DNA of 11,293 bases, taken from a virus (lineage: Duplodnaviria > Heunggongvirae > Uroviricota > Caudoviricetes). The position numbers and the translations under genes are program-made. Below the pieces are notes generated by a model that was given only the letters and a program-made list of their open reading frames with translations, was not told the origin of the DNA and made no database searches. The stretch is from IMG/VR virus record IMGVR_UViG_2778261064_000009, positions 1 to 11,293 of that record. One strand, written 5' to 3'. Of the stretch, positions 1 through 11,293 are shown piece after piece; within the stretch, counting starts at the first letter, position 1; every line of letters begins with the position of its first letter.

Positions 1-290
1 TCGCCTTTATCACCTTTCGGACCCTGCGCACCTGCCGGGCCTGCGGCTCCCGTATCCCCTTTAGGTCCCTGTGGCCCTGCCGGGCCTGCGGCTCCCGTAT
101 CCCCTTTTGGTCCCGGTGGCCCCGCCGGGCCTGCAGCTCCCGTATCCCCTTTCGGTCCCTGCGGTCCTGCCGGACCTGTGGCTCCTGTATCCCCTTTTGG
201 TCCCTGCGGCCCCGCCGGGCCTGCAGCTCCTGTATCCCCCTTGTCGCCCTTCGGTCCCTGTGGACCTCCCGGGTCGCCCTGCTCACCTTT
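1..290. repeat. Tandem 45-bp repeats (15-aa collagen-like units) inside stf
   Basis: Near-identical 45-bp units start at 40, 85, 130 and 175 (cctgc[g/a]gctcc[c/t]gtatcccc...gccggg), with degenerate copies on either side. On the coding (minus) strand each unit encodes five Gly-X-Y triplets. The array may continue beyond the window start. Confidence 0.75.
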
Positions 291-806
291 CGGGCCGGTA
301 TCCCCCTTATCGCCCTTGTCTCCTTTATCCCCCTTTGGCCCCTGTGGGCCTGTATCACCCTTGTCTCCCTTCTGTCCCTGCGGACCCGTTGCTCCGGTGT
401 CGCCTTTCGGTCCCTGTGGTCCCACCGCCGTTTCCGCTTTCCTCGCCGCTTCCTCTGCCCTGCTGACAGCCGCATCCGCCGCGTCTTCCAGTTTTTTCAG
501 CGACTCAGGGTAATAAGTGCTGTCCTGCTCACGCAGCAAAAACGCATTCAGTGTGCCCGGCTCGTCGTCTGCCATGACGTCAATCTCGCCAGCGCATGCC
601 GGCTGACGGCCTTCCACGCACAGGGTCACACGATAACGCCCCGGCTCAACCTGCATGGTGTAACTGCCTGTTTCCCCTGGCTGACACTCCGCCACCGTGG
701 TGACTATCACCGTCTCACTCGTTCGCGTGGCTTTCAGCTCTATGGTGCAGTCCGGTACCGGTTTTCCTGTACCATCCTTCAGCACACCTGAAATCTGTAC
801 TGACAT
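1..806 (-). CDS. stf: Side tail fibre protein, N-terminal portion with collagen-like Gly-X-Y repeat region; 3' end lies beyond window start
   Basis: ATG at 804-806 on the minus strand, preceded by a G-rich stretch. Translation begins [37 protein letters not shown]..., which matches my recollection of the lambdoid Stf N-terminus ([17 protein letters not shown]...). From about residue 130 it becomes uninterrupted Gly-X-Y triplets ([32 protein letters not shown]...). The frame stays open to position 1. It is absent from the ORF track because there is no stop in the window. Confidence 0.8.
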
Positions 807-817
807 ATTCCCCCCAC

Positions 818-843
818 AAAAAAGCCCACCAGAACCGGCGGGC
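818..843 (-). terminator. Putative intrinsic terminator between lom and stf
   Basis: On the minus strand, a GC-rich hairpin (gcccgcc...ggtgggc, one G-U pair) is followed by a TTTTTT run, directly downstream of the lom stop and upstream of the stf RBS. Coordinates are approximate to within 2 bp. Confidence 0.4.
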
Positions 844-870
844 TGTCATAACTCTGTGTTACCTGGCTAA

Positions 871-1470
871 TCAGAATTTATAACCGACACCCACAATGAA
901 ACCGTCAGTGCGCCAGTCGCCACTGCCGGAGCCTTCATAAGCAATATCAATGGCCACGGATTCGGTCGGGTTAAACTGCACGCCAGCCCCCCACGCCAGT
1001 GACGTGTTGCTGTGGCGACCGTCATCACTTCCGGTCAGCACATCGTGCGTTTTCCCCTTGTTGTCAGGTACACGGAGATAATCCCCGGAAAAAGTCGACA
1101 CTCGACTGTAAGCCACACCCACCATCGCATACGCGCTGAACCCTTCATTCACGCGCACAGACGGCCCCGCCATCACGCTGAACCAGCGGTTACGAATGGA
1201 ATCTTCATGCCAGCGGGTATCACTGTAACGGGTAAGCTGGCGATTCATGTCTCCTGCATAGCTGAATGACGTCACCAGCCCCAGCGTGTCCGTAAATTCA
1301 TAGCGGTATTTCACGTTGAATCCGGTTAAATCATCACTGCCGGACATATCAGAATGGGTATGAAGATACCCGGCACTCAGAGTGGAGTGATTCTCTGCTG
1401 CACCCGCTGGCGCACCCGCAGCGGCCAGCCAGACGACTGCAGACATAATAACAGCACATAATTTACGCAT
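871..1470 (-). CDS. lom: Lom outer-membrane protein (Ail/Lom/PagC family beta-barrel); lysogenic-conversion moron
   Basis: 199-aa ORF with an N-terminal signal peptide (MRKLCAVIMSAVVWLAAAGAPAGAAE) and the C-terminal motif SGSGDWRTDGFIVGVGYKF, which is characteristic of lambda Lom as I recall it. RBS GAGAGG lies 5 nt upstream of the ATG. It sits between J and stf as in lambda. Confidence 0.9.
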   Translation of the reverse strand: MRKLCAVIMSAVVWLAAAGAPAGAAENHSTLSAGYLHTHSDMSGSDDLTGFNVKYRYEFTDTLGLVTSFSYAGDMNRQLTRYSDTRWHEDSIRNRWFSVMAGPSVRVNEGFSAYAMVGVAYSRVSTFSGDYLRVPDNKGKTHDVLTGSDDGRHSNTSLAWGAGVQFNPTESVAIDIAYEGSGSGDWRTDGFIVGVGYKF

Positions 1471-1493
1471 AATTACCTCTCGCTTTTCTGCAA

Positions 1494-1519
1494 TAAAAAA
1501 GGCACCATTTCTGGTGCCC
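1494..1519 (-). terminator. Putative intrinsic terminator downstream of J
   Basis: On the minus strand, the hairpin GGGCACCAgaaaTGGTGCC is followed by TTTTTTATT. It lies between the J stop (1538) and the lom RBS. Confidence 0.5.
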
Positions 1520-1537
1520 TTATATGGGTTATAAAAT

Positions 1538-4500
1538 TCAGCTGATACTGATGCCTGCGGTGGCTTTCTTCATCACCACAACCAGCAAATCGCTGATACT
1601 TGCTGTGGGATACCAGTTATTCACCAGCCATGCTGACACCGAAAACTCCAGTGTCATGTGACCGTGACCGGCAGGCATATCAATAACGCCACTGTAAATC
1701 AGCGTATTATCCAGCGCGGTACGGTTATAAATTTCAGCACCGTTTTTCCGCACTATCAGACGGCATGAGGAGTAAATATCAGTATGCTCTCTCTCATGCT
1801 TAGCGCCACTGAATGCCACCGCCGGAATAACAATCTGCCGGTCAAACGGCTGATCGTCATAAACCCTGACGGTAATGGTCCCTGATGGCCACCGCTCCGG
1901 TGCCCGGGAGTCCCGCGGGAAAGCCTTACCCACTGTTTTGACAATATCGCCTTCAATCTGGTTGGCTGACAGTTTCCCCTTAATCTGACAGTTCTCATTA
2001 ATCGTGACGTTGTTGAGCGTCCCTGAGTTCGCATTCACACTGCCACTGATATCCGCATTTTTAGCGGTCAGCTTTCCGTCCGGTGTCAGGGAAAATGCCG
2101 GTGGATTTCCACCACTGGTAATGGTGGGGGCCGTCAGGCGTTTCAGGAACACGTCGTTCATGAATATCTGGTTGCCCTGCGCCACAAACATCGGCGTTTC
2201 ATTCCCGTTTGCCGGGTCAATAAACGCGATACGGTTAGCGGCAACCAGAAACTGGCTCAGTTTACCGTCCTCCGTGTCCTCCATGCTGAGGCCAAGCCCG
2301 GCAACATAATGCTTACCGTCTTCGGTCTGCTCAATTCTGACGCCCCACATGGCATTCCATTTATCGTTAGCGTCTTTCCACTCTTTCGAAAACTCATCCA
2401 GTCTGCTGGCGTTATCTTCCGTCAGTTCAGCGTTTTCCAGCAGCTCTTTACCGAGATGTGTTTTATTAATCAGCCCTTTGTAAAAATTCAGGTAGCCTTC
2501 GGCATCATCGCTGGCCCGGCCGACGGCCTCCACAAATGCCGATTTGCCCACCAGGTTGACGCTGCGGATATAAAAATAATAATCATGGCCCGGCCTGATA
2601 TTACTGGCGGCTGTCCAGTACAGCGCCGTGCCAAGATAGCGGGCGGAGGTTTCAACCTGCCTGATATCCGCAATCTGCTGTTCCGAAAACCAGAATTCAA
2701 ACTGCACCGTCGGGTCATATACAGCCAGTTTCGGGACCGCCGTTATCTGAAAATACCCCGGTATCAGTTCAATGGTGGCAGGCGCTGCCGGGGCGTCAAT
2801 CCGGAACGTGGTGGTGGCAGGTTCGCCCTGCTGGCCATAGCTGTTAATCGCCCTGACCGTCAGGGTGTATTCCCCGGGCGGCAGACCACTGAAACGGTGC
2901 GCCGTGTCTGCGGTGATGGCGGTGGTCACCAGGCGGCTGTTTTCACCGCTTCCGCTGGTCAGACGCAGACTGAAGCTCACACCTTTCACCACCCGCGGCG
3001 TGTCCCATTTCGCCTGCGCCAGATACTGGCCGTCTGAGGCACTCACCTCCACCGTGAGGTGCTGCACTGCCGGAGGGATAACGCTGTTCAGGGTGCCTGA
3101 CTGCGGCTCAAAGCTGGCCCCGTTATCCACGATGGCTTCTTTTTCCGGTACGTGCTGCACCGCCGTGATGGCAAAGGTGCCATCCGTGTTTTCCCGGATG
3201 GCGACACAACGGAACAGGCGACGACGCAGTGACGGCAGGGAGAGTCCCCACACACCGTATGTCGCCACGCCATCAGGCAGGGTACTGACCTGTATCCGGT
3301 CCGGCGCGGGGTGTGCGGTGATGTCCACACTCATCGGCTTACCGCTGCCGTTAATCAGGTTCACCGTGGCGGTACCGGTCTCCGGCAGTGTCACCTCACG
3401 GTCCAGCGTCAGTGTGCGGCTGGCAGCGTCGATGGACAGGATACGTCCGCCGGTCAGGGTCCCGGCGTAGTCGTTATCACAGATTTCAATGATGTCTCCG
3501 GGCGTGTGCCGCAGCCCCTGTGACCCGAGCGTGAAATCCACCGTCTGCGTTTCCAGCAGTCCGGTCTTTATCACCCACAGTCCGGCACGGTGGGCCTGAC
3601 CACGACTGGTGCAGCCGAACGCATCCATCTTCAGCAGGTTGCGTCCGTAGCGCAGTATGGCTTCCGGGTCTTCCACCAGTTCCGTGGAGGTCTGCCAGCC
3701 GTTCTGCGGGTCGGTGTAATTCACCTCCACTGCCGTGTGACGGTCCTTCAGGGCGCTGAAGCTGTAGCGGAACCCCACGCCGTTATCATCCACCACCACA
3801 TCGCTGTTGGTGTACGGCCACACCACATCCGACGGGCGGTCCTGAACGAACGTCAGCGTCTGGCCGTTCCATACCGGCATACAGCGCATCGCCGAGCAGA
3901 AATCGCAGAGCACATCCCATGCCTTACGCTGCTGTGACAGGTACGCATTAAACGTCATCCGCGGCTCTGTCCCTCCGAAGCCATCCGGGACACGCTGGTC
4001 ACAGTACTGCCCGATGGCATACAGCGCCCACTTGTCCACATCCGCCGCCCCCAGACGTTTTCCCATGCCGTAGCGCGGGTGAGTCAGCATGTCCCACAGG
4101 CACCAGGCCGGATTGTTGCTGTATGCCGGTTTCAGACTGCCGTCCCAGATACCGCTGTAAGTGCGTTTTTCCGGGTCATAGTTTGACGGCACCTGGATGA
4201 TGCGACCGCGGATATGGTAGTTCACCGTCATCTGCTGGCCACCGAACTGCTCCGCATCCACCTGCAGCCCCACAATGGCCGTGTTCGGGTAGCACTGTTT
4301 CACATCGATGATTTCGGTGTATGACGACCACAGCGTTCTGTTCTGCAGCTGGTCCGTGGTGCTGTCCGCCGTCTCCCTGACCATCCGGATGTTAAAGGGG
4401 CGGGGAGGCAGATTATCCAGAATCACCGACGCCAGAAACTGCGAGGTGGTCTTGCCGTTAATGGTGACATCCTTTTCCGTCACCCAGTTACCGTTACGCT

Positions 4501-4924
4501 GTAACTGAATCAGCAGCCGGACAGAAGCCGGATTACGGTCACCCTGTGAGGTTGTCTGCACCAGTGACTGTACGCCGAAGGTGACCCGCAGGCGGTCAAT
4601 GTTCGCGGACGTAATGGTGCGCGTCACCGGCTTTGCCTTCGTCACTTCCACGCCCAGTGCGGTTTCAGCTCCGGAGGACTCAAAGCCTTCCGGCGGGGTC
4701 TGCTCCTGCTCCCCGGCGCGCCAGACCGCGGTCACACCGTGTATCACGGGATTACCGTCCGTGTCCGTCAGCGGGGTTTTGTTCACCAGGATACTCTGCA
4801 GTCCCTTCACCGGGCCTTCCACCGGTCCCTCTCCAATCGCATCAATCACGCTCATCATCTGCGTGGATTTGAGATTATCCTTTGCCTCAACCGGCGTGTG
4901 CCCCTTGCCGCCACCTTTGCCCAT
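1538..4924 (-). CDS. J: Central tail fibre / host specificity protein J (tail tip attachment protein)
   Basis: The ORF track gives 1538..4966; the true start is the ATG at 4922-4924, where the protein begins [30 protein letters not shown]. This is nearly identical to the lambda gpJ N-terminus as I remember it, and similarity extends through most of the roughly 1128 aa. RBS AAAGGGTGAG is upstream. The 14-aa extension in the ORF track is read-through of the upstream spacer. Confidence 0.95.
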
Positions 4925-4955
4925 TGTCTCACCCTTTACTGTGATAACTGTTACG

Positions 4956-4988
4956 CACAAAAACAACAGGCATCCCGGAGGATGCCTG
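4956..4988 (-). terminator. Terminator-like hairpin with U-tract in the I-J spacer (minus-strand orientation)
   Basis: A 9-bp perfect stem, caggcatcc / ggatgcctg (4967-4988), with a 4-nt loop. On the minus strand it is followed by TTGTTTTTGTG. It sits about 30 nt upstream of the J start. Confidence 0.4.
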
Positions 4989-5116
4989 TATCATGACTGA
5001 ATAAAAATTCTGAATTTCTTCACATTCTGAAAAAAAAGACTGTTGCGCTGATAAATACGCTGCGTTACTTTTTAGTGCCTGAAAAATAACTCCATAACGT
5101 TAATCTTCATCGTTCT

Positions 5117-5151
5117 CTCCCGCAGCTCCGCGATCACTGCGGGATTTTTTT
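5117..5151 (+). terminator. Terminator-like hairpin with T-tract in the I-J spacer (plus-strand orientation, antisense to the tail operon)
   Basis: An 8-bp stem, tcccgcag (5118-5125) / ctgcggga (5137-5144), followed by TTTTTTT (5145-5151) on the plus strand. On the minus strand the same hairpin has no U-tract, so it reads as a one-directional plus-strand terminator. Confidence 0.4.
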
Positions 5152-5158
5152 ATTCTTT

Positions 5159-5839
5159 TTACCCCTGCCGCCCGATAACCACGACCTTTCCGCCCCCGCC
5201 TTCATCACGGGTGCTGATGTCCTGGGATATACGGCGGGAGCCAACCAGCATTTCCCCGTAAGGCACCGGCATCGGGTTCCCCTGGGCAATCATGTTATCC
5301 AGCGAGGAAAAGTACGTGTTCTGTCTGCCGTTATCCGTTGCGCGGTAATCCGGTGTTTTTGCCTTCGGGGCCAGCATCTGGGCCACACCGCCCAGAATCA
5401 TGCTGGCTCCCAGTGAAAACAGCATCGTGGTGGCAGAAAAACCGCCGGCACTCAGGGCTGTACCCCATAACGCCATCGAGGCACCGGCAGTGAAGAAAGA
5501 GCCCACGATGGCTGCCGCCCCCAGCACAATCTGCAGTCCACCCTTTCCGGCCCCGGCCAGTCGCGGCACAATGTGGATGACCGTTCCCTCACCCAGCTGT
5601 TCGTGAAGACGGGCGTACACCGCCTCCGGTGCCGTGTCCTCACCGCGAATACGTATCTGGTACCAGCCTTCGTTCATCTGACGGCGGAATCCCGGCATCT
5701 GCATCGACAGGGCACGGATGGCTTCCGCTGCCGTGTTCACATACAGGCTGAGGCGGCGGCCAAATCGTTGCAAATCCCCGTGAAGGCAGATGCGTGCCAG
5801 TGGCGGTGACGCCAGACAGAATGCGTTCGTCGTTGCCAT
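5159..5839 (-). CDS. I: Tail tip assembly protein I
   Basis: 226-aa ORF starting MATTNAFCLASPPLARICLHGDLQRFGRR and containing the Gly/Ala-rich hydrophobic segment QIVLGAAAIVGSFFTAGAS and the C-terminal motif TYFSSLDNMIAQGN. Both are co-linear with lambda gpI as I recall it. Its 5' end overlaps the 3' end of K by about 100 nt in another frame. Confidence 0.9.
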   Translation of the reverse strand: MATTNAFCLASPPLARICLHGDLQRFGRRLSLYVNTAAEAIRALSMQMPGFRRQMNEGWYQIRIRGEDTAPEAVYARLHEQLGEGTVIHIVPRLAGAGKGGLQIVLGAAAIVGSFFTAGASMALWGTALSAGGFSATTMLFSLGASMILGGVAQMLAPKAKTPDYRATDNGRQNTYFSSLDNMIAQGNPMPVPYGEMLVGSRRISQDISTRDEGGGGKVVVIGRQG

Positions 5840-6480
5840 TTTTCGGAATACCTCTCCCGTTTACTCAGTTGTTCAGGCAGATGGTGAAGCAGTTCACCGT
5901 TGCCGCAGTAAATGGCGGCATGATTGGCCACCGATGCGCCAAAGCAGCACAGCAGGATATCGCCCGCCTGTGCAGAGGACAGGGGCACCCGGTAAAAGCC
6001 TGTGACCGCCATATTGTCCAGGTAAAGGTTCTGACCGTTGCGCCACCAGTCATCCTCACGCACAAAATCCGGCAGCGTTATCCCCGCCAGATGGTATGCA
6101 TCCCGGAACAGGGTGTAACAGTCCGTCACCCCGTGCTCAAAACGACGCCCAGTCAGGTGCGGCACACAGCGGAATTTGTGAATTTCCCCCCGGCAGACCA
6201 GCCACCAGGGCAGGGCACTCTTTATCTGCAGCCGCCGGTCCGCCTCGCTCAGCCAGGGCAGACCACCGGGGTGGCTGTGAACCAGCGCCACAATCTCCCC
6301 CTGCATCTCTGCCTGCAGCCAGTCTTCCGGCGCAATACGAAAATACGCCTCCGGCTCTGCGGAGATATTCACGCAGGGCTGGTACCGTTCGCCCTCCGGG
6401 GTGCCTATCACGAAGCCGCACAACTCCGCAGGCGCACACCGCCGGGCATGCACCAGAATCGCTGATTCAGTCTGTGTCAT
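5737..6480 (-). CDS. K: Tail tip assembly protein K (JAMM/MPN metalloprotease-like domain plus NlpC/P60 cysteine peptidase-like domain)
   Basis: The ORF track gives 5737..6741, but the first 87 codons overlap L and look non-coding. The real start is the ATG at 6478-6480 (MTQTESAILVHARRCAPAELCGF...), giving 247 aa. A JAMM motif (HSHPGGLPWLSEAD) and an NlpC/P60-like Cys/His pair (GVTDCYTLF ... NHAAIY) are visible. Confidence 0.9.
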   Translation of the reverse strand: MTQTESAILVHARRCAPAELCGFVIGTPEGERYQPCVNISAEPEAYFRIAPEDWLQAEMQGEIVALVHSHPGGLPWLSEADRRLQIKSALPWWLVCRGEIHKFRCVPHLTGRRFEHGVTDCYTLFRDAYHLAGITLPDFVREDDWWRNGQNLYLDNMAVTGFYRVPLSSAQAGDILLCCFGASVANHAAIYCGNGELLHHLPEQLSKRERYSEKWQRRTHSVWRHRHWHASAFTGICNDLAAASACM

Positions 6481-6490
6481 AAAACAGGAT

Positions 6491-7189
6491 TTACTGCGAA
6501 AGTTTATTGATGGAAAGGAAACCGCCAAAATTAGCCACCATGCCGCGCATCTCACACCCGCGCATGCACTTGCTGCATCTGTCCTTACGGATATCGGTGG
6601 TGGGTTTATCGAACTCATCCGCCACAGCCCCGCCCGTGTAACCACACTCATCAGAGCGGTAGGTCCACATACAGGTATTCGCCAGCATAATGCGACCGGG
6701 AAACAGCGCCCCGTCCGTCTCCGTCGGTGTCGCCAGCACAAACGAGGCTGTCATGGCCGTCAGCTCTGACATCTGCTCCACCACCCAGCGGTCGCTCAGC
6801 TCCTGCTCCGGGTCCGCTTCCGGATTGCCCGCCACAAAATTCACCGCATCCAGAAAACGGGCATACACCCGGCGGCGGACCACCGTTGCCCCCACCAGGC
6901 TCTGCAGGTCCTCCGCCATCCCGGTGACCAGACCAAACAGATTGGACACCGTCAGCGACGGGCGGGCACTGCTGCCCTTCCCGTTCATCTCAAAACCGCT
7001 GCCGTCAATCGGGTATACCTGATATTGCCGCCCCTGCCAGGTGACCGCCTCCCCTTTTTCATTCAGCTCATTGCAGAAAAAATAGCGCTCACCGCCCTGC
7101 ACCGTCAGGTCAATTTCCCAGAGCACCACCCGCGGTGACTGCTCTGATTTAACCGACTCGTTCAGGCTTTCTTCATGAATATTCTGCAT
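6491..7189 (-). CDS. L: Tail tip protein L
   Basis: 232 aa, starting MQNIHEESLNESVKSEQSPRVVLWEIDLTVQGGERYFF, the same length as and co-linear with lambda gpL as I recall it. There is a C-terminal cysteine cluster (CMWTYRSDECGYTGG...CSKCMRGCEM). The start codon overlaps the M stop (TGATG). Confidence 0.9.
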   Translation of the reverse strand: MQNIHEESLNESVKSEQSPRVVLWEIDLTVQGGERYFFCNELNEKGEAVTWQGRQYQVYPIDGSGFEMNGKGSSARPSLTVSNLFGLVTGMAEDLQSLVGATVVRRRVYARFLDAVNFVAGNPEADPEQELSDRWVVEQMSELTAMTASFVLATPTETDGALFPGRIMLANTCMWTYRSDECGYTGGAVADEFDKPTTDIRKDRCSKCMRGCEMRGMVANFGGFLSINKLSQ

Positions 7190-7530
7190 CAGTTCACCAC
7201 CTGCTCAATCGTACAGCTGAAATCACTGTACCGGGCGTTATCCGTGACGCTCCACTCCCGGCACACCACCCTCACCGTCCGGTTATGTTTCGGCGGTCGC
7301 CACAAAAAGGCACGGTAACCACCATGCCAGGATAAAAATTCATCCAGCCAGCGCCGGGTTGACTCATCCGTCACCCGGAACACCGCCTGAAACGTCTTCA
7401 GTTGAGGATTCAGCCCTGTGGGGCGACGCTGTTCATAACCGTCACCAAACCGTACCCTCGCCACCGACGGTTTCTCACTCACCTGCATCCCTTCACGCGG
7501 GACCAGATGCAGCGTTTTTATCTCAGCCAC
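7189..7530 (-). CDS. M: Minor tail protein M
   Basis: 113-aa ORF containing the motif VARVRFGDGYEQRRPTGLN and ending EQVVN, like lambda gpM as I recall it. The ORF as drawn starts at a GTG (7528-7530) with GGAGGA about 10 nt upstream, overlapping the end of H. The exact start codon is uncertain. Confidence 0.85.
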   Translation of the reverse strand: MAEIKTLHLVPREGMQVSEKPSVARVRFGDGYEQRRPTGLNPQLKTFQAVFRVTDESTRRWLDEFLSWHGGYRAFLWRPPKHNRTVRVVCREWSVTDNARYSDFSCTIEQVVN

Positions 7531-10138
7531 TCAGCATTCCTCCGTCACGTCGCATGGACAGCATCACCGCCTGCACCCGCTGGTCAATCAGCTGCACAAG
7601 ACTGCCTGCCGCCTCCGGCCCTATCTGGCCATTAGTCCCGTCATTCTGAATGGCGATATGGTAGACCGGGGAATACACCAGACCCGCACTGCCGTTCATA
7701 CTGCCCACCGCTCGCACACCCAGCGAGCCATCCGCCGCCCGGGTCAGGGGCATAATGGCTTCAGGACCGGCCTCCCCCATCAGTCCCGCCCCTTTTGCAA
7801 AGGCAAAGTACGTGGGCGTATCCACAATACTGTTGCTGTACGCACTCAGGTTTGCCGAGGTATACACGCCGCCTTTTGCATTGGCCACCGCCCCGCCCAG
7901 CCAGTCACCAATGCTGCCGAGAAATCCTCCCGCACCGGACATACCGTTTGCCGCCGTCTTAATTCCGTTGACAATCGCGGCATTCATAAGAACTTTTGAT
8001 ATTTCCTGCAGCACTGATGAGGCCCAGCTGCGCCATTCCACTTTATTTCCGTTCAGCATCTCCGTGATGTTATTCACCATCCCTGAGATACCCTCCGTCG
8101 CAAGCTGTGCTGCCTGTGAGGCGTAATCGGACGCATTATCCACCCAGTTACTGAACCCCTCCTGCAGCCCTTTCTGCCAGTCCGCACGCTGCACATCCGA
8201 TTCGGCATAAAAGGCTTCCTGCTCTTTCAGACGTTCACTCAGATACTGTGCATTCTGCGCCAGAGCCTGTCTGTAAAAATCCTCACTGATATCCCCGGTC
8301 TGATACTGAGACTGAAGGTCCGCATCCTTCTGGCGGAAGCTGTCGCGGATCTGCTGCAACTCCCGCATGCGTTCTCTGGCTCGTTCCCCCTGCCCGTACC
8401 CCAGCAGTTCAGCATCATTCGACGCACGCGCAGCCGCATTCTCATTCTTCAGTGTCTCTTCCCGGGATCGCAACTGTTCCCGGATTTTTTGCTGGTCAAT
8501 CAGGGCCGCATTACGCAGCAGCTCCTGCTTCTGCATCTCCGTCAGGGTTTTCAGTTCGCCCTGCGCAGTCTGGTATTTCAGCTTCGCCAGCTCTGTATTC
8601 TGCCCCACCAGTGCCAGTTGCTCTTTCTGCTGCTTCAGCAGCCGGGAAAAACTGTCTTCCGCTTTTTCCGTCTCTGATTTTCCACCCCGGGATTTGGGTT
8701 TATTCGCCTCGTTATTGCGCCAGGCTTCCAGGGCATTACTGATATAACGCTGTCTCGCCTCCTGATACGGATCACCCACAAAACCGAGGTCATCCGCCGC
8801 ATACCCCAGCCGGACACGCTCTTTTTCTTCCCCTTTCAGTCTGGACAGGGCCAGCTCACGCTCTGTTTTTGTCAGGGCACTCTGCTGTTTATCATCCAGA
8901 GTGGCCTGTGGCAGCCGTAACGGCACATTCACCAGTCCCTGCCGCTGCTGAAGCAGTTCATTACCCAGCCCCAGCAGACGGTTGAATTCCGTATGCTGAC
9001 CATTCATAACCAGCATGGACTGGTACACCTTATTCTGCTCTGCCGCCTGCTGACGAATTAACGCCACACGACGGTCTTCCAGCCCGGCAAGCACATCCTG
9101 AATGGACTGCGCTTTTTCCTGCATCTGTGCCAGACGGGACTGCTCAACGGCAAGCTGCTCTGTTGCCTGAGCAAGCCCTTCCGTTACGGTCTTCACCGAG
9201 GTCAGATGGTTTATCATGAATCCGTCACCGGTCGTCCAGCCCGGGTTCGCCAGAACATACTGATATCCTGCGATTTTTTCCTGCAGGGATTTCACCCGAC
9301 TGGCCTGTTCATCAATCAGCCGGTTCTGCTCTGTCAGCGCCGCCCGTGTTCGTCCTTCATTATCTGAGGCTTCAGGCAAAGACATTGACGGCGTTTTATG
9401 CGCGATTTCATCTATCGTCAGTGCATACTGGCGCGCAGACTCCCTGGCCTGCTCCTGATTCTGGTACAGCGTGTACCACGCTGCAGCCCCCAGCATCACC
9501 AGTCCGGGTACGCCACCAACCAGCCCCAGCGCACCGCTCATCAGACGTGAGCCCACCGCCGTTGTACTGTTCAGCGCATTCTGGGCGGCGCTTCTGGCAG
9601 CAATATTTCTGTTCAGGCGTTCCTGTGTGGCCGCCAGACGGGCCTCTGCAGCAATCTGCATCTCCGTCCCGCGGGCTGCCGCCACGGCCTGCTGAGCACG
9701 GTACACGGCTGCCCTTGCCCGCGCCGTGGCAATCTGCGTTCCCCTGAACTGTGCTTCCGCCAGTGCCACTTCATTACGTGCTGCCGTCACAAGTCCTGCC
9801 GTGGCAGACACCGCTCCGGAGGCCATATTGCCAAAGTACCGGGCAACCCCGACGGCAACCAGCGCGCCCACGGCTGTTGCCACATTATCAATCTGTCCGG
9901 CAACACCGTTCAGCATGCCGGAGAGCGTTTTTGTCACCCCGCTGGCCTCATTCGCACCGCCCACCCAGGCCATAAAGGCGTTTTCCACCTTTGTGATACT
10001 ACTGGAAACCGTTTCCGGCATGGCCGCATATTCATCACGTAATATCCCCAGCTGGCTGATTAACGCGGGGACCACTTTATCCGCTGTCAGTTTTCCGTCA
10101 TCCGCCATTGCCTTCAGATCTTTACGGGCCACGCCCAT
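7523..10138 (-). CDS. H: Tail tape measure protein H
   Basis: Long Ala/Gln/Glu-rich, coiled-coil-like ORF with a hydrophobic segment (LGLVGGVPGLVMLGAAAWYTLYQNQ) and a C-terminus (HIAIQNDGTNGQIGPEAAGS...RRDGGMLSG) resembling lambda gpH as I recall it. The ORF track starts at a TTG at 10276, but the first 46 codons look non-coding (His/Pro-rich, poor codon character). I place the start at the first ATG (10136-10138, MGVARKDLKAMADDGKL...); the ATG at 10106-10108 is an alternative. Neither has a strong RBS. Confidence 0.8.
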   Translation of the reverse strand: MGVARKDLKAMADDGKLTADKVVPALISQLGILRDEYAAMPETVSSSITKVENAFMAWVGGANEASGVTKTLSGMLNGVAGQIDNVATAVGALVAVGVARYFGNMASGAVSATAGLVTAARNEVALAEAQFRGTQIATARARAAVYRAQQAVAAARGTEMQIAAEARLAATQERLNRNIAARSAAQNALNSTTAVGSRLMSGALGLVGGVPGLVMLGAAAWYTLYQNQEQARESARQYALTIDEIAHKTPSMSLPEASDNEGRTRAALTEQNRLIDEQASRVKSLQEKIAGYQYVLANPGWTTGDGFMINHLTSVKTVTEGLAQATEQLAVEQSRLAQMQEKAQSIQDVLAGLEDRRVALIRQQAAEQNKVYQSMLVMNGQHTEFNRLLGLGNELLQQRQGLVNVPLRLPQATLDDKQQSALTKTERELALSRLKGEEKERVRLGYAADDLGFVGDPYQEARQRYISNALEAWRNNEANKPKSRGGKSETEKAEDSFSRLLKQQKEQLALVGQNTELAKLKYQTAQGELKTLTEMQKQELLRNAALIDQQKIREQLRSREETLKNENAAARASNDAELLGYGQGERARERMRELQQIRDSFRQKDADLQSQYQTGDISEDFYRQALAQNAQYLSERLKEQEAFYAESDVQRADWQKGLQEGFSNWVDNASDYASQAAQLATEGISGMVNNITEMLNGNKVEWRSWASSVLQEISKVLMNAAIVNGIKTAANGMSGAGGFLGSIGDWLGGAVANAKGGVYTSANLSAYSNSIVDTPTYFAFAKGAGLMGEAGPEAIMPLTRAADGSLGVRAVGSMNGSAGLVYSPVYHIAIQNDGTNGQIGPEAAGSLVQLIDQRVQAVMLSMRRDGGMLSG

Positions 10139-10165
10139 ACCCGCAGCCAGTGCACGTGTGGGGTA

Positions 10166-10308
10166 GTGATCAATTCTGGGCGGGGTTAGTGCAGCCTGGT
10201 AGAACCTGCAAGCCTTGTGTGGCGCGGGGTGTGGTGATTTAGTGTGATTCTGGGCGGTTTTGTGAGAAATGACCAAAAACGCTTTTTTTTGCGCTTTTTT
10301 CTGGGCGC
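10166..10308. repeat. Three direct copies of TTCTGGGCG in the non-coding leader upstream of H
   Basis: Copies at about 10175-10183, 10248-10256 and 10299-10307. The first two share an extended match (GTGAT[caa]TTCTGGGCGG). A 9-mer recurring three times in about 150 bp is very unlikely by chance. Confidence 0.5.
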
Positions 10309-10468
10309 TTTTGATCTGGTTCTGCTACAAACTTAACGGGTTTTAAATGCTTTTAAAAAGTGTTTTATCCTTGCCCGTTTTCCTCAAGTTGTTCTCATCT
10401 GTTGTGTTCGGTTTTGTTGTGGTTATTGCTGATTAGCTAACAGCACACGCCCCGCCAAAACGAGGCGC

Positions 10469-11095
10469 TTATGCTGATTTCTTGTTTATAGGCTTAGTTT
10501 TTTGCTCCGGTGTGACGGGAACGCGATCACCTGGTGTTCCTGCTCGGATACAGGATTTGGCGCGTTGCAAAATCTCTTTGTCGGTTTCTTCATTACCAGC
10601 CAATGCCACGCAAATGGCCTCTTTTAGAGAGTCCCTTATGTTTAAGTTACGTATAACAGTTTCTATGTCTGTTTCTACTGACGTAGCCAGCCGATTCAAA
10701 ATCCCTTTTACACCGATTTCTGATGCTGCTATCGCTAACGCTTTTCGATCCTTACTACTTACAAATCCTAATAATGAAACGATTAACGCAACAGAATCAT
10801 CGTTACAATCGTACTTTGGTTCGCTTTCTTCATAATCATTCGAATAATCTCCTTGTGGTTGTTCTCCTGTAAGTAGCCACATAAGTGAAACGCCACAGGC
10901 ATCGGCAACCCTTGCTGCGCTATCAATGGTTGGGTAACTATCTCCCCTTAGGTATTTCCTGACAGATGCTTCAGATAAGCCACTACGGCGAGCAATCTCG
11001 CTTTTGTTTAGCCCCCCCATCGCTTTTTCCAGCCTTTCGCCAAAGCGTACTATTTGCTCATTATGAAAAGTACGATCATGTTTAATTGATGTCAT
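10469..11095 (-). CDS. XRE-family (Cro/CI-type) helix-turn-helix transcriptional regulator with an unassigned C-terminal domain
   Basis: 208-aa ORF with ATG at 11093-11095 and RBS GGAGA about 9 nt upstream. Residues about 25-80 (LNKSEIARRSGLSEASVRKYLRGDSYPTIDSAARVADACGVSLMWLLTGE) fit the HTH_XRE pattern. The C-terminal roughly 130 aa have no motif I recognise, and there is no obvious S24/LexA-type Ser-Lys peptidase signature. Hand-counted samples give about 35-45% GC, well below the flanking tail genes. Confidence 0.75.
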   Translation of the reverse strand: MTSIKHDRTFHNEQIVRFGERLEKAMGGLNKSEIARRSGLSEASVRKYLRGDSYPTIDSAARVADACGVSLMWLLTGEQPQGDYSNDYEESEPKYDCNDDSVALIVSLLGFVSSKDRKALAIAASEIGVKGILNRLATSVETDIETVIRNLNIRDSLKEAICVALAGNEETDKEILQRAKSCIRAGTPGDRVPVTPEQKTKPINKKSA

Positions 11096-11277
11096 AGCGT
11101 ACTATTCTCCAAATCTCATTGATAAACAAAGAAAATTTTCACAAGTCGTACTTTTGTATCAATTTCAACAAAAGTACGATTATTTTCTTGACTTCGTACT
11201 TTAGTGCGATCTATCCTTTATCACATTCGATAATCGAATTTGATTATCGAATTCGATAAACGTGAGAGGATCACACA
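11096..11277. promoter_or_regulatory. Divergent promoter/operator region between the XRE regulator gene and a plus-strand gene
   Basis: Perfect 11-bp inverted repeat TCGTACTTTTG-N12-CAAAAGTACGA (11146-11179). Related half-sites (AAAGTACGA / TCGTACTTT) lie at about 11066-11077 and 11190-11200. A sigma70-like promoter on the plus strand (TTGACT 11188-11193, about 18 bp spacer, TATCCT 11212-11217) is followed by two adjacent palindromes, ATTCGATAATCGAAT (11226-11240) and TTATCGAATTCGATAA (11243-11258), then RBS GAGAGGA (11262-11268) and ATG 11278. Confidence 0.6.
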
Positions 11278-11293
11278 ATGCAGTTGTTGAGAC
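11278..11293 (+). CDS. 5' end of an unidentified plus-strand gene divergent from the XRE regulator (truncated by window end)
   Basis: ATG at 11278 with the RBS GAGAGGA ending about 9 nt upstream, downstream of the predicted promoter and operators. Only about 5 codons (MQLLR) are visible, so the product is unknown. Confidence 0.35.

Follow-up and report, generated by a model that had tools for sequence, protein, structure and literature searches.

Why does the tail operon of a lambdoid prophage give way, at its tape-measure gene, to low-GC DNA that carries a repressor gene? The window analysed here, the whole 11,293-nt stretch of virus record IMGVR_UViG_2778261064_000009, has a GC content of 57.6% in 1-10156 and of 42.1% in 10157-11293. 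A reading of the same DNA made from its sequence alone had noticed this drop, and had placed from 10139 onward a repressor-controlled cassette of accessory genes that stands upstream of the tape-measure gene in place of the tail chaperone genes G and T. The drop is confirmed, with its step at 10157, and foreign DNA has indeed been inserted in a conserved tail operon, with a repressor facing a divergent promoter. We are highly confident that a Mu-like transposable prophage, inserted in the tape-measure gene of a lambda-like, Stx-phage-type prophage, begins at 10157, and that 10157-11293 is its left end, with attL followed by the immunity and early-control region. What can be seen physically of the element in this source is 1137 nt of its left end and 76 nt of its right end.

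The tape-measure gene is split

When 9900-11293 was compared with deposited phages by Megablast, only 9900-10157 was matched, at 100% identity, and all of the matches lie inside tape-measure genes of Stx-type lambdoid phages. DNA similarity to the intact genes has its last base at 10156/10157, which corresponds to codon 203/204; in BP-4795 it ends 609 nt into a tape-measure gene of 3243 nt. Protein alignment gives the same boundary, as the tape-measure ORF of the window is residues 203/204-1080 of the 1080-aa BP-4795 tape-measure protein (TMP), at 99% amino acid identity, and Pfam TMP_3 matches it at profile positions 122-191 only, of 192. The ORF can be extended to a TTG start (7523-10276), and the 39 codons thereby added upstream of the TMP-matching part are unrelated to the BP-4795 TMP.

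Similarity to intact tape-measure genes continues to 10157, which lies 609 nt into the gene, and alignment thus makes the ATG at 10138 an internal methionine and not the start of the tape-measure gene. The foreign DNA therefore interrupts the gene rather than lying upstream of its start, and it begins at 10157 rather than at 10139. The 871-aa "tape measure protein" called on the window contig is a truncated fragment. It is very likely that the lambdoid prophage is tail-defective through the split of this gene.

The reciprocal junction and the empty site

Other copies of the same element family, described below, are flanked by 4-bp duplications in all six of the complete copies (TGAT, CACT, GTCG, AATT, AGAT and ATTG). 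Fusing the flanks of the B1172 copy with a single TGAT gives the uninterrupted ydiS gene at 100% over 296 nt, and the eutC flanks of E2348/69, fused likewise, give the uninterrupted gene at 98.6%. These 4-bp duplications in relatives predict that the 5' tape-measure fragment on the far side of the insertion is 205 aa (203 TMP residues, a valine and a stop), with the stop supplied by TGTAA of the element. The exact predicted sequence is present in a collection of 15 billion proteins, on one contig of 14,318 bp, whereas exact look-up in the same collection of the 213-aa fragment expected from a 5-bp duplication (GCACG) found it absent. A homologue search with the predicted 5' fragment returned cluster representatives only, none of them bearing the predicted end, and two pattern scans of species-representative genomes gave nothing for either the right-junction or the left-end pattern. 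Searched for in viral contigs, the predicted right junction gave a single match, L019 (IMGVR_UViG_2778261064_000005, 14,318 bp).

In the orientation of the window, L019 carries 76 nt of Mu-like right end (...GCGAAGTTACA), then CACG, then TACGATCCGG..., in which the tape-measure gene continues. Its ORF 13630-14247 is the 205-aa tape-measure fragment, and this fragment covers TMP_3 profile positions 2-122, the exact complement of the positions matched in the window. An intact ORF of 1080 codons, with 99.7% identity to the BP-4795 gene, is regained when window 1-10156 is fused to the flank on L019 and one of the two CACG copies is dropped. Directly upstream of the 5' tape-measure part on L019 lie a Phage_TAC_1 gene (G, E 2e-61), a Phage_tail_T gene (T) and the tail tube gene. 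The L019 junction and the restored ORF therefore put the chaperone genes in their expected place, beyond the right end of the inserted element; both are intact, directly upstream of the true tape-measure start, and nothing has replaced them. L019 and the window almost certainly come from one genome, as argued by the match to the prediction, by the 14,318 bp that L019 has in common with the carrier of the 205-aa protein, and by an IMG genome number that is common to a third contig, L016.

A duplication of 5 bp, as in Mu, was considered and rejected. The fifth base disagrees in B1172, E2348/69, SA53-3, AVS0151 and OkiPb01701, and the larger duplication is also ruled out by the 100% join of ydiS across a single 4 bp and by the missing 213-aa fragment. 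Termini moved by one base and a 6-bp duplication were tried as well, and both fail on the B1172 flanks. Our literature search gave nothing usable on the Mu-like prophage of E2348/69 or on 4-bp duplications in transposable phages. The expected scars are 5 bp for Mu and 6 bp for B3 (PMC8705779), which makes 4 bp shorter than the textbook scar; yet such a duplication is on record for E. coli Mu-like phages, since the depositors of LC727881.1 annotate it for an inserted Sp18-type Mu-like phage.

Table 1. Features of the insertion and of the left end of the Mu-like element (window coordinates)
Feature	Position	Strand	Remarks
Lambdoid tape-measure gene, 3' part (codons 204-1080)	7523..10156	-	separated from promoter-proximal 609 nt
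CACG, left copy of 4-bp target-site duplication	10153..10156	.	other copy at right junction on L019
Right junction on L019			...GAAGTTACA, then CACG, then TACGATCC
attL of Mu-like prophage	10157..10468	+	terminus TGTGGGG and three direct TTCTGGGCG repeats
Repressor gene, functional analogue of Mu c, 208 aa	10469..11095	-	N-terminal XRE/CI-type HTH
Fifth, distant AAAGTACGA copy	10809..10817	-	within repressor gene
AAAGTACGA half-site	11067-11075	+	putative repressor operator
AAAGTACGA half-site	11146-11154	-	putative repressor operator
AAAGTACGA half-site	11171-11179	+	putative repressor operator
AAAGTACGA half-site	11194-11202	-	putative repressor operator
Pc analogue, promoter-like, repressor gene	11135..11162	-	TTGATA-16-GAAAAT, TG-extended; consensus scan
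Pe analogue, promoter-like, early operon	11188..11217	+	TTGACT-18-TATCCT; consensus scan, weak alone
ATCGAAT / ATTCGATAA repeats, 13-nt period	11218..11262	.	between Pe and ner-like start; putative Ner-like operator
ner-like gene, first 16 nt (MQLLR...)	11278..11293	+	ends at contig end

The two ends of the element

The sequence-only reading had described repeat-bearing non-coding DNA before the regulator gene, and this description holds. No credible ORF is found in this stretch of about 310 bp, which contains three direct copies of TTCTGGGCG, at 10174, 10248 and 10299. The whole window has five copies of the motif, where chance would give 0.14, and three of the five are these in attL. Scans of the window for Rfam families and for tRNA genes came back empty. 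Each end of the element opens with TGT when read inward, and from each terminus the first core TCTGGGC begins at exactly nt 19. At the left end the core stands at nt 19, 93 and 144, all direct, and at the right end at nt 19 and 41 (direct) and 68 (inverted). This is the arrangement of the L1/L2/L3 and R1/R2/R3 sites of Mu, and the three attL repeats are putative transposase sites L1, L2 and L3. The termini TGTGGGG...GTTACA are joined to seven different interrupted genes, that of the window included, and in the relatives the element begins TGTGGGGTAGTGATCAATTCTGGGCGG, each time right after another truncated gene.

We suggest that a MuA-like DDE transposase would bind the TTCTGGGCG-containing sites at both ends and join the TG...CA termini to target DNA cut at CACG with a 4-bp stagger. 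Such an insertion, falling between codons 203 and 204 of the tape-measure gene, would be expected to prevent the lambdoid prophage from assembling tails.

The repressor, the ner-like gene and the region between them

The leftward gene next to attL had been read as an XRE-family regulator of 208 aa, and a profile search bears this out, with matches to Pfam HTH_3 (E 4.9e-9) and Phage_CI_repr. The protein, recorded as WP_105268816.1 from Escherichia sp. MOD1-EC2449, also matches phrog_3037 (transcriptional repressor) over its full length (E 1.9e-33), and its nearest deposited homologues occupy the same position and orientation in D3112-like Pseudomonas phages and in Klebsiella Mu-like phages. For annotation, this HTH gene is best named Mu-like phage repressor.

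The start of a plus-strand gene at 11278 was likewise called correctly: the ATG is preceded by a GAGAGG ribosome-binding site, and it aligns with the start of an 89-aa HTH_35 protein in STEC316 and B1172. With Mu Ner this protein shares 36% identity (E 8e-16).

The two genes diverge from a repeat-rich region, 11067-11262, in which the sequence-only reading had also recognised an operator-rich divergent promoter. The window has five copies of AAAGTACGA, where 0.05 would be expected, and four of them fall within 11067-11202; the copy at 11067 and the one at 10809 both lie in the repressor gene. The three half-sites that start at 11146 (-), 11171 (+) and 11194 (-) pair into two overlapping palindromes, and the spacers of these palindromes hold the -35 hexamers of the leftward and the rightward promoter-like site, the Pe -35 lying between two half-sites. 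The promoter scan returned as many hits as expected by chance, and both promoter-like sites are proposed from their position.

Comparison among relatives helps to assign the two kinds of repeat. A core of the first motif, AAAGTACG, is retained in OkiPb01701, which has a repressor with a near-identical HTH, and the AAAGTACGA motif is also present in B1172; the core is missing from E2348/69, whose repressor HTH differs. The ATCGAAT/ATTCGATAA repeats go with the same ner allele in B1172 and OkiPb01701, while in E2348/69, which has the other ner allele, they are replaced by an unrelated inverted repeat, GGATAACAC...GTGTTATCC. The motifs thus co-vary with the regulator alleles, which supports the assignment of AAAGTACGA to the repressor and of the ATCGAAT repeats to the Ner-like protein as their putative binding sites.

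By this assignment the ner-A-B early operon of a lysogen would be kept off by the 208-aa HTH repressor, bound to the AAAGTACGA palindromes on either side of the -35 elements of the two divergent promoters. The Ner-like protein would probably bind a little farther on, at the ATCGAAT repeats that follow the early promoter.

The element family in E. coli genomes

In a set of 5,426 complete E. coli genomes, 10155-11293 is matched at about 97.5% identity in eight, and in none of those eight is it joined to the tape-measure gene. The attL segment alone is found in 45 of the 5,426 genomes, at varied loci. The interrupted genes include ydiS (B1172), eutC (E2348/69), ytfQ (SA53-3), aslB (AVS0151), fliH (OkiPb01701) and, in STEC316, the holin gene of an Stx2e prophage, next to stx2e. 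This Mu-like lineage is accordingly present in about 0.8% of complete E. coli genomes, EPEC E2348/69 among them, and the analysis provides a description of its end repeats, putative operators and 4-bp duplication.

The gene order of the relatives after the terminus is a leftward repressor gene, a rightward Ner-like gene, a MuA-like transposase gene and a MuB-like ATPase gene. The transposase has 660 aa with Mu-transpos_C, HTH_Tnp_Mu_1 and rve domains, and is followed by the AAA ATPase (AAA_22/TniB-like), DUF3164 and further genes. The complete B1172 copy, of 37,589 bp, has genes for Mor, holins, endolysin, terminase, DUF935 portal, Mu F-like protein, protease and gpT major head, and for a contractile tail with sheath and tube, a tape measure, a DNA circularisation protein, baseplate and fibres. 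In the source, the transposase and ATPase genes lie beyond the end of the window; the late genes are described here from the B1172 copy.

A second copy and the end of the contig

L016 (IMGVR_UViG_2778261064_000002), whose IMG genome number is that of L019, holds a second Mu-like left end. Its attL is 94% identical to that of the window, its repressor is the 224-aa variant seen in OkiPb01701, and it sits in a tail gene of another lambdoid prophage. The window is the complete contig PTRP01000060.1 of assembly GCA_002965585.1, whose record has no sequence past 11293. The L016 contig stops at the very base that matches window position 11293, and the last 82 nt of the two contigs are 98.8% identical. 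Two copies with a common ner-A-B region would break a short-read assembly, which is probably why the window contig stops 16 nt into ner. A Mu-like tail-sheath protein, WP_105268812.1, could belong to this second copy.

Alternative explanations

The most serious competitor concerns how much of the element is left. The Mu-like copy might be a remnant only, internally deleted or rearranged, so that the window would show a fossil end with an orphan repressor. In the draft assembly the interior is linked to neither junction, and the presence of a second related copy makes the assignment of contigs ambiguous; there is also a precedent in the SA53-3 copy, which is internally deleted to 13.5 kb and carries an IS3 insertion. 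We nevertheless find a remnant improbable. In the source copy the two termini and the duplication are preserved and the repressor ORF is unbroken, relatives are mostly of full length (36-37.6 kb), and the tail-sheath protein WP_105268812.1 is only four accession numbers away from the repressor WP_105268816.1, which hints at late genes in the same assembly. The source copy is probably complete.

The accessory cassette of the sequence-only reading (a moron, defence, exclusion or toxin system, or a foreign immunity switch, that replaces G and T upstream of an intact tape-measure gene) can be given hardly any credence. It would account for a lower-GC block, an HTH repressor, a divergent operator-rich promoter and a gene that runs off the window, but the tape-measure gene is truncated at codon 203/204, G and T adjoin its missing 5' part on L019, and the reciprocal junction together with the empty-site reconstruction refutes the proposal. 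Nor does the supposed cargo survive: the "payload" at 11278 is a Ner-like regulator (HTH_35), a standard phage gene and like the repressor a core Mu-type regulator, and all relatives continue downstream of it with the MuA-like transposase and the MuB-like ATPase, the complete ones also with the whole set of Mu-type late genes. A PADLOC scan found no defence family, its only returns being a weak generic HTH match and a TnsC-like match of the MuB homologue. A chimera, in which the assembly of a draft genome with at least two related Mu-like copies and contig breaks at repeats wrongly joined a lambdoid contig to a Mu-like one, is just as implausible, as the join falls exactly at the terminal TG of the element, an independent contig has the reciprocal junction with a matching 4-bp duplication, and the same contig is recorded in 4 samples.

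Having set these explanations aside, we return to the insertion of a Mu-like prophage into the tape-measure gene, and to whether it reflects a preference. About 4 of 15 identifiable insertion sites of the lineage are in prophage genes: the tail genes of the window and of L016, which belong to one genome, the holin gene in STEC316, and a phage capsid gene in SCAID WND1-2021. The sample is small and the window itself was selected as odd, and we think it unlikely that the lineage lands in resident prophage DNA above chance and is, in effect, a prophage-killing phage. The locus is a further clear example of a resident prophage put out of action by a transposable phage. Insertion of a transposable prophage into another prophage is a well-known, ordinary event and opens no new question; Mu-like phages inserted in prophages and in Stx phages have already been reported, and among 13 closed STEC CC119 genomes 6 of 10 Mu-like (Sp18-type) phages were in mobile elements (PMC10132054).

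Comparison with known systems

The closest systems are the uncharacterised Mu-like prophages of E. coli (E2348/69, NC_011601.1; STEC316; B1172; AVS0151; OkiPb01701), which belong to the same family, with attL segments 96-98% identical. Their termini, repeat layout and 4-bp duplication are as in the source copy, and the insertion site differs. In STEC316 and B1172 the repressor/ner region is 97.5% identical to that of the window, whereas E2348/69 has a different immunity module (HTH, operators, ner allele and ner site), with similarity ending near window 10642, in the repressor gene.

The left-end map is almost superimposable on that of Mu (NC_000929.1). Counted from the terminus, the repressor gene of the window occupies nt 313-939 leftward, compared with 339-863 in Mu, and ner starts at 1122, compared with 1099; A and then B follow in both. 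Mu likewise has TG...CA ends and quasi-random insertion, and the core repeats of the element follow the pattern of its three sites per end, with the third at the right end inverted. The proteins are more distant. The MuB-like ATPase of the relatives is 32% identical to Mu B (E 6e-21), their transposase is only 21% identical to Mu A over about 300 aa (E 5e-7), and the 208-aa repressor, of XRE/CI type, has no detectable similarity to Mu Repc. The end-repeat sequence also differs, and the duplication is 5 bp in Mu against 4 bp here. With no Repc-type repressor and an A protein only 21% identical, the element falls outside Muvirus (Mu, D108). A search of a phage collection with the DNA of 10157-11293 found no match. 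Given the low protein similarity to Mu and nearest deposited transposases at 45-50%, we regard the lineage as Mu-like but not Muvirus and, as judged by sequence similarity, without a close relative among deposited phage genomes.

The Sp18-type Mu-like phages (LC727881.1, LC727895.1; PMC10132054) offer a parallel for the event itself, being also transposable phages inside a lambdoid Stx-type prophage. They are of a different lineage, with a transposase about 45% identical and ends that read TGTAACC... and TATAGCG....

For the repressor, the best parallel is found in D3112/B3-like Pseudomonas phages and Klebsiella Mu-like phages (PaMx73, LESphi4, Kp4866-3, ST405-OXA48phi1.1), which have a CI/XRE-type left-end repressor on the opposite strand. 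The D3112 group has siphovirus-type tails. These phages infect other hosts, and their repressors are 30-45% identical over part of the protein and their transposases 31-50% identical to those of the E. coli lineage.

The tape-measure junction and the lambdoid prophage

Where the Mu-like left end splits the tape-measure gene, the longest mechanical ORF extends 120 nt into the Mu-like sequence, and the public gene call begins at an internal ATG at 10138 to give 871 aa. Both calls are artefacts of the insertion. At the opposite end of the window, the collagen-like coding sequence has a GC content of 64-68% and a very strong AT skew (-0.68), and it probably belongs to a side tail fibre gene carried by the lambdoid prophage.

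Sequence features and their coordinates in the window
Feature	Position	Strand	Remarks
Collagen-like coding sequence	1-806	minus	repetitive, Gly-X-Y type; downstream of lom; runs off contig
Longest mechanical ORF	7523-10276	minus	917 aa; TTG start
AAAGTACGA, fifth exact copy	10809-10817		within repressor gene; ~330-390 nt from operator cluster

Other copies of the Mu-like family

A related second Mu-like left end is present in the same IMG genome, at 1-1260 of L016 (IMGVR_UViG_2778261064_000002; compare window 10157-11293). This copy encodes the 224-aa repressor variant and interrupts a tail gene in another lambdoid prophage. The L016 contig stops at the exact base equivalent to window 11293, suggesting that the assembly broke at the ner-A-B repeat common to the two copies.

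In STEC316, the same Mu-like phage lies in the holin gene directly downstream of stx2e (L001, 5890-8003), an insertion that should prevent lysis by the Stx2e prophage, with a possible effect on the release of toxin. The SA53-3 copy in ytfQ (L009, 1012-14487) spans only ~13.5 kb; its ner gene is followed by an IS3-family element, and everything from the transposase through the tail tape-measure gene is absent. This reduced copy shows that decayed members of the family exist.

Immunity module and target duplication

Similarity to E2348/69 and several IMG/VR copies ends at about 10642, within the repressor gene. The attL end and the last ~58 repressor codons are common to the window and these copies, whereas the HTH domain, operators and ner of the window differ. 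The immunity module of this family looks like a mosaic, with mosaicism of the same kind as that between Mu and D108. The intragenic copy of the putative half-site AAAGTACGA may either act as a distal operator in DNA looping or have arisen by chance.

A 4-bp target duplication was seen in all seven of the family's insertions that were examined (window 10153-10156 with L019, the contig carrying the right end; L006, L007/L001, L008/L003, L009, L010 and L011). In contrast, Mu generates 5 bp and B3 6 bp, while the Sp18-type Mu-like phage in LC727881.1 also has a 4-bp duplication, as annotated by the depositor.
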